From NCBI RefSeq assembly GCF_054482525.1, contig NZ_CM137006.1: a stretch of DNA of 64,000 nt. One strand, written 5' to 3'. The notes below the pieces were generated by a model. That model made no database searches, was not told where the DNA came from, and worked only from the letters and a program-made list of their open reading frames with translations. Shown here piece by piece: positions 26,442-34,373 of the stretch; positions within the stretch are counted from its first letter, which is position 1, and each line of letters begins with the position of its first letter. The position numbers and the translations under genes were made by a program.

Positions 26442-26513
26442 TTGCGGTTGGTAATAAAAGTCTGGCTCCCTATAATGAGCCAGACTTTTTACCGCTGTAA
26501 TAAAGGAGAAATC

Positions 26514-26900
26514 ATGAGCAAAACTATCGCGACGGAAAATGCACCGGCAGCTATCGGTCCTTACGTACAGGGCGTTGATCTGGGCAATATGATCATCACC
26601 TCCGGTCAGATCCCGGTAAATCCGAAAACGGGCGAAGTACCGGCAGACGTCGCTGCACAGGCTCGTCAGTCGCTGGATAACGTAAAAGCGATCGTCGAAG
26701 CCGCTGGCCTGAAAGTGGGCGACATCATTAAAACCACCGTGTTTGTGAAAGATCTGAACGACTTCGCAACCGTTAATGCTACTTACGAAGCCTTCTTCAC
26801 CGAACACAACGCCACCTTCCCGGCACGTTCTTGCGTTGAAGTTGCCCGTCTGCCGAAAGACGTGAAGATTGAGATCGAAGCGATCGCTGTTCGTCGCTAA
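26514..26900 (+). CDS. ridA: 2-iminobutanoate/2-iminopropanoate deaminase
   Basis: Start MSKTIATENAPAAIGPYVQG (128 aa), preceded by aaggag, inside ORF 26442..26900. Confidence 0.93.
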   Translation: MSKTIATENAPAAIGPYVQGVDLGNMIITSGQIPVNPKTGEVPADVAAQARQSLDNVKAIVEAAGLKVGDIIKTTVFVKDLNDFATVNATYEAFFTEHNATFPARSCVEVARLPKDVKIEIEAIAVRR

Positions 26901-27105: not shown

Positions 27106-29802
27106 TTACTGCCAGCCGTAACGACGGCTATAGAACCCTTTCACCAACTGGGTTAACGTCATATACCCTGCCAGAATCGCAACCAGCCACGGGAAATAGC
27201 TTAACGGCAGCGCCTGCAGCTGCAGATAACTGGCCAGCGGTGAAAACGGCAATGCGATCCCGACAATCATCACGATCACGGTCATGATCATTAACGGCCA
27301 CGATGCACAGCTCTGAATAAACGGCACACGACGGGTGCGGATCATATGCACAATCAGCGTTTGTGACAGCAAGCCCACCACAAACCAGCCCGACTGGAAC
27401 AGCGTTTGCGTTTCCGGCGTGTTGGCATGGAATACCCACCACATCAGGCAAAACGTCAGAATATCGAAGATCGAGCTGATCGGTCCGAAGAAGATCATAA
27501 AGCGCCCCAGATCCGCCGGATTCCAACGCTGCGGCTTTTGAATTTGCTCGTCGTCGACGTTATCAAACGGGATCGCCACCTGTGACACATCGTACAGCAA
27601 GTTCTGAATAAGCAAGTGTAACGGCAACATCGGCAGGAAGGGCAAGAAAGCACTCGCCACCAGCACGCTGAACACATTACCGAAGTTAGAACTCGCCGTC
27701 ATTTTGATGTATTTCAGCATATTGGCGAAAGTGCGACGTCCCTCAATAACCCCCTCTTCCAGCACCATCAGGCTTTTTTCCAGCAGGATGATATCAGCCG
27801 CTTCACGGGCAATATCTACCGCGCCGTCCACAGAAATGCCGATATCCGCAGCGCGTAAGGCGGGCGCATCATTAATACCATCGCCCATAAAGCCAACCAC
27901 ATGCCCTTCGCGCTTCAGTAAGGTCACAATGCGTTCTTTATGCATCGGCGTCAGGCGGGCAAACAGCGTGGTGCGCTGTGCGAGATTTGCCAGTTCGTCG
28001 TCAGATAGCGTTTCAATATCACTACCAATGACCACCTCTCCCGCGTCCAGCCCCACTTCATGGCACACTTTCGCTGCAACTAACTCACTGTCGCCAGTAA
28101 GGATTTTTACGGTAATGCCACTCGCTTTTAATGCCTTCAGTGCCGGAGCGGTTGTCTCTTTTGGCGGATCAAGGAAAGCAATATATCCTTCGAGGATCAG
28201 GTCGGACTCATCCGCTCGCTGGTAATCTCCTTCACGCGCTGGCAGGTATTTCGTCGCCACCGCAACCACGCGCAGCCCCTGACGATTCAGCGTATCGGTA
28301 ACCCGCTTAATCTTACGCAGCATGGTGTCATCGAGTGGTACAATCTCGCCATTGTGACGCACCTGCGAACACACATTGAGGATTTCCTGCAATGCGCCTT
28401 TGCAAACCAGCTGATGGTGTTCGGTATTTTCTGCCACTACCACCGACATCCGGCGACGCTCGAAATCAAACGGAATCTCATCAATTTTTTGCCAACGGCT
28501 GGCCAGCGAGCGCGCTGACTCTTCATCCGTACCTTCGAGCACCGCGGTATCAAGCAGGTTTTTAAGTCCGGTCTGGTAATGACTGTTCAACCACGCGCTA
28601 TGCAGCACGCGTTCGCTGGTTTTACCGGAGATATCGGTATGATTCTCCAGCACAATTTTATCCTGCGTCAGGGTGCCGGTTTTATCAGTGCACAGAATAT
28701 CCATTGCGCCAAAGTTCTGAATGGCATCCAGATGTTTGACAATCACTTTCTGTTTCGACAGCTTTACTGCGCCGCGCGCCAGCGTCGAGGTAACAATCAT
28801 CGGCAACATTTCCGGCGTTAAGCCTACCGCGACCGAAAGCGCAAACAGTGCCGCTTCCCACCAGTCGCCTTTGGTGTAACCGTTGATAAGCAACACCACC
28901 GGAGCCATCACCAGCATAAAGCGAATCAGCAGCATACTGACGCGGCTGATCCCTTGCTGAAAGGCATTCGGCTCGCTTTCCTGCTCACTAACACGCCCCG
29001 CCAGTTGACCAAACCAGGTGTTGGCTCCTGTAGCAATCACCATTGCTTGTGCCGTGCCGCTCACCACGGTGGTGCCCATAAAACACAGGGTGTCGCACTC
29101 CAGCGGATTGCTGTGCTCCGGCTGGCGAGTGGTGGCGGCTTTTTCCACGGGCAGAGACTCACCGGTTAACGACGCCTGAGCGACGAACAGATCCCGCGCC
29201 TGCAAGATACGTAAATCTGCCGGGATCATATCCCCCGCCGCCAGTTTTATAATATCGCCGGGCACCAGCTGGTCGATCGGGATCTCCAGCCAGCCATTTT
29301 CGCCTTTGTCGTTAATTACGCGCAGCACCGTCGCGGTATTGCTGACCATCGCTTTCAGGGCATCTGCCGCTTTAGTGGAACGTGCTTCCTGAATAAAGTT
29401 CAGCAACGTAGAAATAGCGACCATTAGCGCGATAACACCCGCGGCAAATAAATCTTCCGTGGCGTAAGAAATAGCGCCGAGAATGGTGAGTAAAATATTA
29501 AAGGGGTTGCGATAGCAGACCCATAAATGTACCCACCACGGCGACGGTTGTTGTGCGGGTAATTTATTATCACCATGTTGTTCGCGGGCAGATTCCACTT
29601 CCGCCTGATTTAATCCTTCCGGATGGGTGTCGAACGTTTTCCATAATTCTTCTTCGGGCATCACCGCCATTTTCAGGCAATGCGCACTTAAGGACGGCGG
29701 GACCGCCGTATTCACTGTCTGCTGCGCGCCAGGTAATGGATCGCGATGAACCAGACGGGAAGGTAAATGGCGAATGAACCGAGTAAAAATTTCTTTAAAC
29801 AT
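27106..29802 (-). CDS. mgtA: Mg2+-importing P-type ATPase
   Basis: 898 aa; DKTGTLT phosphorylation motif and GDGINDAPAL. Confidence 0.96.
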   Translation of the reverse strand: MFKEIFTRFIRHLPSRLVHRDPLPGAQQTVNTAVPPSLSAHCLKMAVMPEEELWKTFDTHPEGLNQAEVESAREQHGDNKLPAQQPSPWWVHLWVCYRNPFNILLTILGAISYATEDLFAAGVIALMVAISTLLNFIQEARSTKAADALKAMVSNTATVLRVINDKGENGWLEIPIDQLVPGDIIKLAAGDMIPADLRILQARDLFVAQASLTGESLPVEKAATTRQPEHSNPLECDTLCFMGTTVVSGTAQAMVIATGANTWFGQLAGRVSEQESEPNAFQQGISRVSMLLIRFMLVMAPVVLLINGYTKGDWWEAALFALSVAVGLTPEMLPMIVTSTLARGAVKLSKQKVIVKHLDAIQNFGAMDILCTDKTGTLTQDKIVLENHTDISGKTSERVLHSAWLNSHYQTGLKNLLDTAVLEGTDEESARSLASRWQKIDEIPFDFERRRMSVVVAENTEHHQLVCKGALQEILNVCSQVRHNGEIVPLDDTMLRKIKRVTDTLNRQGLRVVAVATKYLPAREGDYQRADESDLILEGYIAFLDPPKETTAPALKALKASGITVKILTGDSELVAAKVCHEVGLDAGEVVIGSDIETLSDDELANLAQRTTLFARLTPMHKERIVTLLKREGHVVGFMGDGINDAPALRAADIGISVDGAVDIAREAADIILLEKSLMVLEEGVIEGRRTFANMLKYIKMTASSNFGNVFSVLVASAFLPFLPMLPLHLLIQNLLYDVSQVAIPFDNVDDEQIQKPQRWNPADLGRFMIFFGPISSIFDILTFCLMWWVFHANTPETQTLFQSGWFVVGLLSQTLIVHMIRTRRVPFIQSCASWPLMIMTVIVMIVGIALPFSPLASYLQLQALPLSYFPWLVAILAGYMTLTQLVKGFYSRRYGWQ

Positions 29803-30062
29803 AAGGAGTCCCTCCGCACTGTCTGAAACAGTACAGAAATGTCTTCAGGCGTGGCGAAGCCTTACCTGAAGGTAATAAAGCTGAGCTGGGACGTTAAAAC
29901 GTCACGGCCTTACGCATCCGGTAACGCCGTGAAAAGACGGGCTTACCGGAAAAGTTTTAATCTCCGTCGAGGGAGAGGCGTGGGATCAGGTTCCATATAA
30001 CCTCCGGTAAGTGAAAAAAGCGCCGCAAATAATAAGGAGAATCCAATAATATTCGTAGCATC
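29803..30062 (-). promoter_or_regulatory. mgtA 5' leader (Mg2+- and proline-sensing attenuator region)
   Basis: About 260-nt untranslated leader between the putative -10 (30072..30077) and the mgtA start; contains mgtL. Confidence 0.65.
29943..29996 (-). CDS. mgtL: mgtA leader peptide (proline-rich)
   Basis: [17 protein letters not shown] (17 aa) = last 17 codons of the 113-aa ORF-track entry 29943..30284. Confidence 0.8.
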
Positions 30063-30088
30063 TATGGCGATATAATACCTGCTGGCAA

Positions 30089-30108
30089 CTAAACCAACGA
30101 TAAACCAG
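30089..30108 (-). promoter_or_regulatory. PhoP box in the mgtA promoter
   Basis: Minus strand reads CTGGTTTATCGTTGGTTTAG, a direct repeat of GGTTTA spaced 5 nt apart. Confidence 0.7.
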
Positions 30109-30180
30109 ACTTTACCCATTGCTGAATGCACGGGTAAAGTTAGGCTCAAATAATTAAACAACACGTTACGGGACAACAGG

Positions 30181-31128
30181 ATGCAAAATCGGCTGACCAT
30201 CAAAGACATCGCGCGCTTAAGCGGCGTGGGGAAATCTACGGTTTCCCGGGTGCTGAATAACGAAAGCGGCGTGAGCCAGCGCACGCGCGAGCGTGTTGAA
30301 GCAGTGATGAATCAGCATGGATTTTCCCCTTCCCGCTCTGCGCGCGCTATGCGTGGGCAAAGCGATAAAGTGGTCGCCATCATTGTGACCCGTCTGGATT
30401 CGTTGTCAGAAAATCTCGCCGTTCAAACCATGCTGCCAGCGTTCTATGAACAAGGTTACGATCCAATCATGATGGAAAGTCAGTTTTCCCCACAATTAGT
30501 TGCCGAACATTTGGGGGTGCTGAAACGGCGTAATATCGACGGCGTAGTGCTGTTCGGTTTTACCGGCATAACAGAAGAAATGATAGCCCACTGGCAGTCA
30601 TCGCTGGTTCTGCTGGCGCGTGACGCAAAAGGCTTTGCTTCGGTCTGTTATGACGACGAAGGGGCAATCAAGATCCTGATGCAACGGCTGTATGACCAGG
30701 GGCATCGTAATATCAGTTATCTCGGCGTGCCGCATAGTGACGTGACGACCGGTAAGCGACGTCACGAAGCCTACCTGGCGTTCTGCAAAGCGCATAAACT
30801 GCATCCCGTTGCCGCTCTGCCAGGCCTTGCTATGAAGCAAGGCTATGAGAACGTAGCAAAAGTGATTACGCCTGAAACTACCGCGTTACTGTGCGCAACC
30901 GACACGCTGGCACTTGGTGCAAGTAAATACCTGCAAGAGCAACGCATCGACACCTTGCAACTGGCGAGCGTCGGTAATACACCGTTAATGAAATTCCTCC
31001 ATCCGGAGATCGTCACCGTAGATCCCGGTTACGCCGAAGCTGGACGCCAGGCGGCCTGCCAGTTGATCGCGCAGGTAACCGGGCGCAGCGAACCGCAACA
31101 AATCATCATCCCCGCCACCCTGTCCTGA
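30181..31128 (+). CDS. treR: trehalose operon repressor (LacI family)
   Basis: 315 aa; HTH LTIKDIARLSGVGKSTVSRVLN. Confidence 0.95.
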   Translation: MQNRLTIKDIARLSGVGKSTVSRVLNNESGVSQRTRERVEAVMNQHGFSPSRSARAMRGQSDKVVAIIVTRLDSLSENLAVQTMLPAFYEQGYDPIMMESQFSPQLVAEHLGVLKRRNIDGVVLFGFTGITEEMIAHWQSSLVLLARDAKGFASVCYDDEGAIKILMQRLYDQGHRNISYLGVPHSDVTTGKRRHEAYLAFCKAHKLHPVAALPGLAMKQGYENVAKVITPETTALLCATDTLALGASKYLQEQRIDTLQLASVGNTPLMKFLHPEIVTVDPGYAEAGRQAACQLIAQVTGRSEPQQIIIPATLS

Positions 31129-32717: not shown

Positions 32718-34373
32718 ATGACTAATCTTCCCCACTGGTGGCAAAACGGCGTTATCTACCAGATTTATCCAAAGAGTTTTCAGGACACCACGGGTAGCGG
32801 CACCGGCGATTTACGTGGCGTTATCCAGCGCCTGGACTATCTGCATAAACTGGGCGTTGATGCCATCTGGCTAACCCCCTTTTATGTCTCTCCCCAGGTT
32901 GATAACGGTTACGACGTAGCGAACTATACGGCGATTGATCCCACCTACGGCACGCTGGACGATTTTGACGAACTGGTGACACAGGCAAAATCGCGCGGGA
33001 TTCGTATCATTCTCGATATGGTGTTTAACCATACCTCTACCCAACATGCCTGGTTTCGCGAGGCGCTGAACAAAGCAAGCCCTTACCGCCAGTTTTATAT
33101 CTGGCGCGATGGAGAACCAGAAACGCCACCGAACAACTGGCGTTCAAAATTCGGTGGTAGTGCGTGGCGCTGGCATGCGGAAAGCGAACAGTACTATTTG
33201 CATCTCTTTGCACCAGAACAGGCGGATCTCAACTGGGAGAATCCAGCGGTACGCGCAGAGCTGAAAAAAGTCTGTGAGTTCTGGGCCGATCGTGGGGTCG
33301 ACGGGTTGCGCCTGGATGTGGTGAATCTGATCTCCAAAGACCCGCGTTTCCCTGATGACCTGGATGGCGACGGGCGTCGCTTCTACACCGACGGGCCACG
33401 AGCACACGAGTTTTTGCACGAGATGAACCGCGATGTGTTTACGCCACGCGGGTTAATGACCGTAGGTGAAATGTCCTCCACCAGCCTTGAGCATTGCCAG
33501 CGATACGCGGCTCTGACAGGCAGTGAATTGTCGATGACCTTTAATTTTCATCACCTGAAGGTCGATTATCCCGGTGGTGAGAAATGGACGCTGGCTAAAC
33601 CTGACTTTGTGGCGTTAAAAACATTGTTCCGCCACTGGCAACAAGGAATGCACAACGTGGCATGGAATGCCTTGTTCTGGTGTAACCACGATCAGCCGCG
33701 CATTGTTTCTCGCTTTGGTGATGAAGGTGAATACCGCGTGCCTGCGGCAAAAATGCTGGCGATGGTGCTGCATGGCATGCAGGGAACGCCATATATCTAC
33801 CAGGGCGAAGAGATTGGCATGACTAACCCACATTTCACGCGCATTACTGACTATCGCGACGTGGAGAGCCTCAATATGTTTGCCGAGCTGCGCAACGATG
33901 GGCGTGATACCGACGAGTTATTGGCAATCCTCGCCAGTAAATCCCGTGACAACAGTCGCACACCCATGCAATGGAGCAACGGCGATAATGCCGGGTTTAC
34001 GGCTGGCGAACCGTGGATTGGCCTGGGCGATAACTATCAGGAAATCAACGTAGAAGCCGCGCTGGCCGATGAGTCCTCGGTGTTTTACACCTACCAAAAG
34101 TTAATCGCACTGCGTAAGCAAGAAGCCGTCCTGACATGGGGCGATTACCAGGATCTGCTGCCAAACAGTCCTGTATTGTGGTGCTATCGCCGTGAATGGA
34201 AGGGGCAAACCTTGTTGGTCATTGCCAACCTTAGCCATGAGATCCAACCCTGGCAGCCAGGGCAAATGCGCGGCAACTGGCAGCTTGTGATGCATAACTA
34301 CGAAGAAGCCTCACCACAACCCTGTGCCATGACTTTACGGCCTTTTGAGGCTGTCTGGTGGTTACAGAAGTAA
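32718..34373 (+). CDS. treC: trehalose-6-phosphate hydrolase
   Basis: Start MTNLPHWWQNGVIYQIYPKSF (551 aa), GH13 family; the ORF-track start 32571 lies inside treB. Confidence 0.94.
   Translation: MTNLPHWWQNGVIYQIYPKSFQDTTGSGTGDLRGVIQRLDYLHKLGVDAIWLTPFYVSPQVDNGYDVANYTAIDPTYGTLDDFDELVTQAKSRGIRIILDMVFNHTSTQHAWFREALNKASPYRQFYIWRDGEPETPPNNWRSKFGGSAWRWHAESEQYYLHLFAPEQADLNWENPAVRAELKKVCEFWADRGVDGLRLDVVNLISKDPRFPDDLDGDGRRFYTDGPRAHEFLHEMNRDVFTPRGLMTVGEMSSTSLEHCQRYAALTGSELSMTFNFHHLKVDYPGGEKWTLAKPDFVALKTLFRHWQQGMHNVAWNALFWCNHDQPRIVSRFGDEGEYRVPAAKMLAMVLHGMQGTPYIYQGEEIGMTNPHFTRITDYRDVESLNMFAELRNDGRDTDELLAILASKSRDNSRTPMQWSNGDNAGFTAGEPWIGLGDNYQEINVEAALADESSVFYTYQKLIALRKQEAVLTWGDYQDLLPNSPVLWCYRREWKGQTLLVIANLSHEIQPWQPGQMRGNWQLVMHNYEEASPQPCAMTLRPFEAVWWLQK

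Follow-up and report, generated by a model that had tools for sequence, protein, structure and literature searches.

How is the Mg2+ importer gene mgtA controlled at this locus, and how much of the open reading frame called upstream of it is a real gene? The program-made ORF track places a 113-codon frame across the space between mgtA and its divergent neighbor treR, and the first-pass annotation of the same DNA saw there a PhoP-dependent promoter, a long leader, and a leader peptide gene of only 17 codons. Our analysis indicates that this space is the canonical mgtA control region of Escherichia coli, operating in two layers (control of initiation and control of elongation), a reading to which we assign a probability of about 95%. 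In the region itself we observed the sequence elements and their positions, their family membership, conservation and covariation, and two mutually exclusive folds. No observation speaks against the identification; the reservations given below bear on the mechanism. Every defining feature of Rfam RF01056, Pfam PF17059, and an architecture I PhoP promoter that sequence can test is present. The control region is already known and is one of the best-characterized bacterial leader systems; the region conforms to that system except for one leader substitution and the side observations given below. All positions refer to the whole 64,000-nucleotide (nt) stretch of DNA that was analyzed, called the window here.

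Identity of the locus and collection of orthologues

The control region lies between two divergently transcribed genes:

27106..29802, minus strand: mgtA, Mg2+-importing P-type ATPase of 898 amino acids (TIGR01524, 1608.9 bits with a cutoff of 610.75, and RefSeq annotation)
30181..31128, plus strand: treR, the divergent neighbor, 315 amino acids (TIGR02405, 590.2 bits, and RefSeq annotation)

A 601-nt query matched 5425 of 5426 complete E. coli genomes, that of E. coli PCN033 with 100% identity, and 11 of the 12 matches listed carry annotations of treR, mgtL, and mgtA at this place. Alignment with the characterized K-12 leader, which the first-pass annotation had proposed as a check, runs without gaps from inside treR to mgtA codon 7 of strain MG1655 and gives 416 identities in 421 nt, with mgtL identical. 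Of the five substitutions, two precede the PhoP box and a third (30085, C versus T) falls in the spacer between the box and the -10 hexamer; the leader itself contains only one (29887, A versus T), and the last is in mgtA codon 6-7. The A at 29887 is missing from the other 24 sequences of the alignment described next.

Orthologous loci were collected by scanning one genome per species with the back-translated MgtA peptide WWVHLWVCY, which lies about 265 nt inside the gene. Because mgtA coding sequence served as the bait, the loci were chosen independently of the leader. The search yielded 25 loci, from Escherichia (four species-level groups), Salmonella, Citrobacter, Leclercia, Yokenella, Kosakonia, and Enterobacter, and the divergent treR-mgtA arrangement is present in every orthologous locus that extends far enough. 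The 25-sequence alignment shows little or no variation in the second half-site of the PhoP box (GGTTTA), the T-A-T-n-A-T of the -10 hexamer, both arms of stem A, and mgtL codons 1 to 9; variation is found in the spacers and in the C-terminal half of MgtL.

PhoP box and promoter

Two elements make up the predicted promoter:

30090..30106, minus strand: PhoP box, direct repeat GGTTTA-TCGTT-GGTTTA (GGTTTATCGTTGGTTTA), predicted from its match to the consensus
30072..30077, minus strand: -10 hexamer TATTAT, 12 nt (30089..30078) downstream of the PhoP box

A PhoP box on the minus strand was among the claims of the first-pass annotation, and it is confirmed as the sole match to KGTTTA-N5-KGTTTA on both strands of the 64-kb window, where 0.03 matches are expected; 3 of 100 shuffled sequences contained any match. 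The 20-mer spanning the box (30108..30089, minus strand) reads CTGGTTTATCGTTGGTTTAG. The -10 hexamer, previously a candidate, was also confirmed at 30077..30072, its T-A-T-n-A-T being invariant in the 25 aligned sequences. A single box in direct orientation, (T/G)GTTTA-N5-(T/G)GTTTA, about 12 nt from the -10 hexamer and overlapping the -35 position, is the arrangement of architecture I. The mgtA promoter of Salmonella has been described as such an architecture I PhoP promoter (class II), with the box 12 nt from the -10 hexamer and the sequence TGGTTTATCGTTGGTTTAA (PMC3335776); the Salmonella box differs from the one here solely in the last flanking base. Within the alignment, half-site 2 (GGTTTA) is invariant, and half-site 1 takes two forms: GTTTA (Escherichia, Salmonella, C. 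sedlakii, and Leclercia) and GTATA (C. freundii group and Kosakonia).

A scan of 29700..30300 for the sigma-70 consensus found no complete promoter and no recognizable -35 element, because the PhoP box occupies the -35 position. Such a null result is expected and uninformative, since the promoter is activator dependent and lacks a -35 element.

As a separate observation, a near-invariant block, GCAATGGGYAAAGTCTG (30122..30106), adjoins the PhoP box in seven genera. A MarA/SoxS/Rob box was considered for this conserved block upstream of the PhoP box and dropped, since its GCA-to-AAA spacing, judged by eye, departs from the consensus for such boxes.

Transcription start and length of the leader

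The start and extent of the leader were placed as follows:

30064, minus strand: inferred transcription start (+1), K-12 coordinate 4467363, calibrated to published numbering, with an uncertainty of about 2 nt
29803..30064, minus strand: mgtA 5' leader, 262 nt, with one difference from K-12 (at 29887)

Two independent calibrations agree on this start. (i) In the published numbering of the E. coli mgtA 5' region, GUAAGGCCGUGA occupies nt 152-163 and one C is nt 175 (Vezina Bedard et al., PMC11552253); both numberings are compatible with +1 at 30064 alone. (ii) The Salmonella mgtA leader is 264 nt long, with a -10-to-+1 distance of 7 (PMC3335776). Counted from the alignment column of 30064, the leaders of the two Salmonella sequences are 264 nt long (266 from the column of 30066), and the distance of 7 also fits +1 at 30064. 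From a start at 30064, it follows that the E. coli leader would be 262 nt long and mgtL would start at +69, which bears out the earlier estimate of a leader of about 260 nt. As a caveat, the +1 nucleotide would be a U, which is unusual. Starts at 30066 or 30065, derived from the -10 spacing alone, were superseded by 30064 after calibration to the published numbering.

The leader peptide gene mgtL

Within the leader lies a short gene:

29943..29996, minus strand: mgtL, 17 codons plus stop (ATG at 29996, TAA at 29943), RefSeq mgtL, WP_001387276.1, K-12 b4702

The codons read ATG-GAA-CCT-GAT-CCC-ACG-CCT-CTC-CCT-CGA-CGG-AGA-TTA-AAA-CTT-TTC-CGG-TAA, which places prolines at codons 3, 5, 7, and 9 and acidic residues at codons 2 and 4, and a Shine-Dalgarno (SD) sequence, GGAGG, stands at 30005..30001, 5 nt before the ATG. 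The profile PF17059 (MGTL) is matched over its full length, 1-17, with 38.6 bits (cutoff 25, E = 7.1e-10). The gene thus has the features of MgtL: about 17 codons, its own SD sequence, prolines at 3, 5, 7, and 9, and a location inside stem-loop A upstream of mgtA. RefSeq annotates it at the same coordinates, and its sequence matches K-12 b4702 exactly, which confirms the 17-codon gene proposed at first pass. In E. coli MG1655, the identical mgtL sequence is translated and its translation controls mgtA (PMC11282234).

An ORF whose product begins M-[DE]-P-[DE]-P-T-P-[LH]-P-[RK] is kept in all 24 of the 24 loci with enough upstream DNA; the orthologous ORFs have 15-17 codons and lie 185-200 nt before the mgtA ATG. 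The first-pass annotation had held that a leader or mgtL not conserved in orthologous regions would speak against its claims; we found mgtL in 24 of 24 loci and the leader helices kept with compensatory changes.

Two other short frames in the leader were considered as genes. A 34-codon ORF (29957..30061, minus strand), starting 4 nt after +1, was rejected, its ATG being absent from non-Escherichia orthologues, including those of Salmonella and Citrobacter (CATAATTGCC). A 53-codon ORF antisense to the leader (29839..30000, plus strand) was set aside, as nothing favors it as a gene.

Leader RNA family and alternative folds

The leader RNA carries the following predicted elements:

29896..30011, minus strand: Rfam RF01056, Magnesium-II / Mg sensor (leader +54..+169), comprising stem-loop A with mgtL and stem-loop B; 125.8 bits
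29942..30011, minus strand: stem-loop A, outer helix CUUACCGGA (30011..30003) with UCCGGUAAG (29950..29942), from the minimum-free-energy (MFE) fold
29902..29932, minus strand: stem-loop B, the "OFF"-state helix (leader +133..+163), from the MFE fold
29917..29950, minus strand: alternative stem-loop C, the "ON" state, pairing the A 3' arm (UCCGGUAA) with the B 5' arm (UUACCGGA), from constrained folding
29808..29892, minus strand: downstream helices +194-201/+215-222 and +228-238/+242-252 and the closing helix GUCCC/GGGAC (+173-177/+253-257), from the MFE fold

The Rfam scan for the Mg2+ sensor that had been recommended at first pass returned RF01056 far above its gathering score of 40 (E = 5.5e-25, model positions 1-115 of 115), with the match ending 94 nt upstream of the ATG of mgtA, a magnesium-translocating P-type ATPase by TIGR01524. 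The MFE of the leader (264 nt from 30066) is -88.4 kcal/mol, with z = -4.85, and none of 200 dinucleotide-shuffled controls folds as well. Stem-loop A encloses the mgtL SD sequence and almost all of mgtL. In constrained folding, blocking the stretch from the mgtL SD sequence to codon 8 or 12, which imitates a stalled ribosome, leads to the formation of stem C, and blocking all of mgtL plus 10 nt, which imitates a ribosome at the stop codon, gives stem B instead. The computed folds thus include the two mutually exclusive states, A+B versus C, that characterize RF01056.

Placed on the 25 aligned sequences, the full fold leaves 85.4% of cells paired, versus 37-44% after shifting the partners by 1-3 columns, a comparison in which the tested structure is favored because it was derived from the window sequence itself. 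In this fold, 19 pairs are changed on both sides, and its covariation score was reached by none of 500 shuffles. Stem B (helix 8) is 96.3% paired and shows compensatory pairs (UA/GC 18:7, UA/CG 13:10, AU/GC 19:3); downstream of it, helix 9 is 92.8% paired, and helices 11 and 12 contain 4 and 5 pairs with compensatory changes, respectively. Stem A (helix 4) is 100% paired in the 25 sequences with all 9 pairs invariant, so that covariation is silent on it. Stem C is 93.3% paired, versus 12-43% when slid, and is mostly invariant; covariation gives no support to stem A and most of stem C, both being invariant. This invariance would be expected if one sequence serves as SD sequence, coding sequence, A arm, and C arm at once.

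A further observation concerns the mgtA start. The mgtA SD sequence, GGAGG (29815..29811), is buried in helix +228-238/+242-252, which has five compensatory pairs, and in GUCCC/GGGAC. Such burial could add translational control after read-through, and the block GCAATGGGYAAAGTCTG could be a regulatory site shared by treR and mgtA, not merely the treR -35 region; we regard this as unlikely. Both SD burial and the block are apparently outside the standard description of the system, and either may already have been described.

Proposed mechanism and the Mg2+ sensor

The two-layer operation can be set out stepwise; the literature is the source for binding of PhoP, for the start of transcription, for Rho dependence, and for the dependence of mgtL translation on Mg2+ and proline. 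Low periplasmic Mg2+ would activate PhoQ/PhoP, and phosphorylated PhoP would bind the direct repeat at 30106..30090. Standing at the -35 place, 12 nt upstream of TATTAT, PhoP would direct class II activation of transcription from about 30064. The 262-nt leader would then fold either as stem-loops A and B, with mgtL within A, or as stem-loop C. With ample Mg2+, ample Pro-tRNA, and help from EF-P and EttA, mgtL would be translated to its stop codon and the ribosome would cover the A 3' arm; stem B would then form, C-rich single-stranded RNA would be accessible, and Rho would terminate transcription before mgtA. Under low cytoplasmic Mg2+, low proline, or hyperosmotic stress, ribosomes would stall or fall off at M-E-P-D-P-T-P-L-P, leaving the A 5' arm unavailable, so that the A 3' arm and the B 5' arm would pair as stem C and RNA polymerase would enter mgtA.

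In published work, high Mg2+ favors A+B and repression, and low Mg2+ favors C; mgtL is translated inefficiently at low Mg2+ owing to the prolines and acidic residues of its product, and completed translation of mgtL leads to Rho-dependent termination (PMC11552253). In E. coli MG1655, ribosomes drop off at EPDP, which is counteracted by EttA, and the E2Q/D4N change abolishes mgtA expression (PMC11282234). Within the mechanism, Rho-dependent termination and the identity of the Mg2+ sensor are least certain.

With regard to the sensor, opinion is divided on whether the RNA senses Mg2+ directly or the signal passes through translation of mgtL (PMC11552253). The leader may be primarily a Mg2+-binding riboswitch, in which the metal stabilizes A+B without mgtL translation and mgtL is secondary, acting mainly as a proline sensor. 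Rfam classifies the element as a magnesium riboswitch aptamer, A+B is the unconstrained MFE fold, and Mg2+-dependent RNA folding alone sufficed to modulate Rho termination in vitro (work cited by PMC11552253). However, more recent work cited in PMC11552253 and PMC11282234 points to Mg2+ sensing through mgtL translation, by destabilization of the ribosome at EPDP and with dependence on bL31 and EttA. In addition, M-[DE]-P-[DE]-P-T-P is strictly conserved at the peptide level across seven genera, which argues that translation is under selection. We therefore view a primarily metal-binding leader as a possible but rather doubtful alternative to sensing through mgtL translation; the two models are compatible with each other.

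Premature termination in the leader

For the Rho step, published 3' ends of K-12 could be transferred to the window:

29851, minus strand: position homologous to the K-12 Term-seq 3' end 4467576 (leader +214), mapped through the gap-free K-12 alignment

In K-12, this 3' end is at -49 nt relative to the mgtA ATG, and the region that holds it is marked "Yes" for significant Rho termination (Adams et al., PMC7815308, Supplementary file 3), with a Rho score of 1.56 and the label riboswitch. A second K-12 3' end, 4467490, from the same study (PMC7815308) falls at window position 29937 (+128), just after mgtL. These Term-seq/bicyclomycin data flag the mgtA leader as Rho dependent (PMC7815308), whereas an earlier ChIP-based study gave no evidence of Rho-dependent termination for E. 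coli mgtA (as stated by PMC11552253). The evidence for the Rho step is therefore firmer in Salmonella than in E. coli.

Alternatively, premature termination might be intrinsic, by a hairpin and U tract, and GACGUUUUAACG, with a short U run, does follow stem B. Yet our scan for intrinsic terminators over 29700..30300 found no terminator-like site within the leader, its sole match (30286..30269) lying outside it, and the K-12 3' end at -49 scores 1.46 as an intrinsic terminator, below the threshold of 3, and lies in a significant Rho termination region (PMC7815308). We consider intrinsic termination very improbable and retain Rho as the candidate factor.

The 113-codon ORF-track entry

There remains the entry that raised the question of what is a gene here:

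29943..30284, minus strand: 113-codon ORF-track entry with a GTG start, in frame with mgtL, codons 97-113 being mgtL; an artifact

That the ORF track fuses mgtL into a frame running over the treR start had been noted at first pass, and the overlap with treR (start 30181, plus strand) amounts to 104 nt. The GTG at 30284 precedes the inferred mgtA transcription start by about 220 nt and falls within treR, which is encoded on the other strand. Pfam MGTL matches residues 97-113 only, leaving residues 1-96 matchless, and a search of the 113-residue translation in NCBIfam gave no match, the MgtL part included. Ahead of the mgtL ATG, the orthologues differ widely in how far the frame stays open: 11 codons in Kosakonia oryzendophytica, the shortest case, and at least 97 in the longest. 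Five loci in which the frame is not cut by a sequence edge contain no in-frame start codon upstream of that ATG. The Pfam match, the unconserved extension, and the position of the GTG within treR support the earlier statement that only the last 17 codons are real. The entry is produced by lengthening the mgtL frame at its 5' side, as far as the first GTG that follows a stop codon.

That it is instead a protein-coding gene with MgtL as its C terminus is hardly credible: its 113 uninterrupted codons begin with GTG, and the mgtL frame is open for at least 90 codons also in K-12 and three Citrobacter loci, but families are found at residues 97-113 alone, the extension is not conserved, the frame crosses the PhoP box, the -10 hexamer, and the transcription start, its first 104 nt are antisense to treR, and RefSeq annotates only the 17-codon mgtL.

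The value of the mgtA region lies in quality control, in that the arrangement of promoter, leader, and leader peptide is recognizable from raw sequence. The ORF track systematically overextends short or N-terminally ambiguous genes, giving mgtL 113, ridA 152, and treC 600 amino acids, and long ORFs antisense to real genes are not to be trusted at face value.

Comparison with known systems

The E. coli K-12 mgtA leader (b4702; 4467363..4467624) is the same locus, with the same order, treR <> mgtL-mgtA; mgtL, the PhoP box, the -10 hexamer, and stems A, B, and C are identical to those described here, and the differences are the five single bases listed above. The Salmonella enterica mgtA leader is orthologous, with 264 nt versus 262 nt here, the same 12 nt between PhoP box and -10 hexamer, mgtL likewise inside stem-loop A, the same A+B versus C folds, and an invariant stem A sequence. 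It differs in that its MgtL departs from that of E. coli at 6 of 17 positions (MDPEPTPLPRWR[IV]FLFR), stem B carries compensatory substitutions, and the -10 hexamer is TATGAT; its Rho dependence is documented more firmly than that of E. coli.

In the trpL, hisL, and pheL attenuators, too, the progress of translation along a short leader ORF picks between alternative RNA hairpins. These attenuators use intrinsic terminators and runs of codons for the regulatory amino acid, whereas the mgtL system would have a Rho-dependent readout and stalling through Pro and acidic codons and Mg2+-dependent ribosome stability. The corA leader of E. coli and Salmonella, with corL, has a similar three-way junction enclosing an upstream ORF, two exclusive folds, and Rho-dependent termination (PMC11552253). 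It belongs to another locus, the corA promoter is constitutive rather than PhoP dependent, and corL has a single proline.

Helices around the mgtA ribosome-binding site

The mgtA Shine-Dalgarno sequence GGAGG (29815..29811, minus strand) lies within two conserved helices that were predicted by folding of the leader (29808..29837). In the alignment of 25 orthologous sequences, including the window, helix +228-238/+242-252 shows compensatory changes at 5 pairs, and pairing in the GUCCC/GGGAC closing helix reaches 92.8%. This placement suggests that the mgtA ribosome-binding site may be occluded. At 29887 (minus strand; leader position +178), which adjoins the GUCCC arm of the long-range leader helix, the window carries the PCN033-type A, against a T in K-12 and in 22 further orthologues of the alignment and a C in one.

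Conserved blocks upstream of the PhoP box

In the ortholog alignment, two near-invariant blocks precede the PhoP box in Escherichia, Salmonella, Citrobacter, Leclercia, and Kosakonia:

30106..30122, minus strand, block GCAATGGGYAAAGTCTG
30134..30142, minus strand, block TAACTTTAC

Three Citrobacter and three Kosakonia genomes carry an insertion of about 30 to 45 nt between the first block and the PhoP box. In plus-strand orientation, the two blocks give TTTACC (30111..30116) and TAAAGT (30135..30140), separated by 18 nt, a weak candidate for the treR promoter (8/12); this hexamer pair was absent from the output of a sigma-70 consensus scan of 29700..30300.

Annotation of neighboring genes

In the RefSeq/PGAP annotation of the matching E. 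coli PCN033 locus (L001), treR, which is identical to that of the window, is labeled a pseudogene with a “missing N-terminus” (L001 673..1623, corresponding to window 31128..30178), and its annotated start is placed 3 nt upstream of the ATG. The window open reading frame encodes a full-length TreR of 315 amino acids (TIGR02405, 590 bits) that is 99.4% identical to the K-12 protein over residues 1 to 315. The pseudogene label looks like an annotation quirk and not a real defect.

The mechanical ORF track also over-extends two genes in the neighborhood of mgtA and mgtL, both from TTG starts:

26442..26900, plus strand, ridA entry, 152 amino acids
32571..34373, plus strand, treC entry, 600 amino acids

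Going by the K-12 proteins, RidA proper probably begins with MSKTIATENAP (ATG at 26514; 128 amino acids) and TreC proper with MTNLPHWWQNG (ATG at 32718; 551 amino acids).

Besides the Mg sensor, five further Rfam matches in the 64-kb window exceed the gathering score:

12103..12297, minus strand, Ysr276, 185.8 bits
62840..62962, minus strand, ES239, 157.4 bits
58211..58268, plus strand, STnc450, 77.2 bits
48519..48595, minus strand, naRNA4, 63.6 bits
1007..1088, minus strand, tRNA, 59.4 bits

Distribution and comparison with K-12

A search of the E. coli genome collection left the control region without a match in 1 of 5426 complete genomes, and three matches fell on plasmid-labeled records. 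In the dolphin isolate GCU-H1, the match is limited to the treR-side 240 nt; therefore, the mgtA leader is deleted or interrupted there.

Among the K-12 Term-seq 3' ends reported in PMC7815308, one at 4467490 corresponds to window position 29937 (minus strand; leader position +128). This position is 6 nt past the mgtL stop codon, at the 5' foot of stem B, and the 3' end could stem from pausing, from processing, or from termination.
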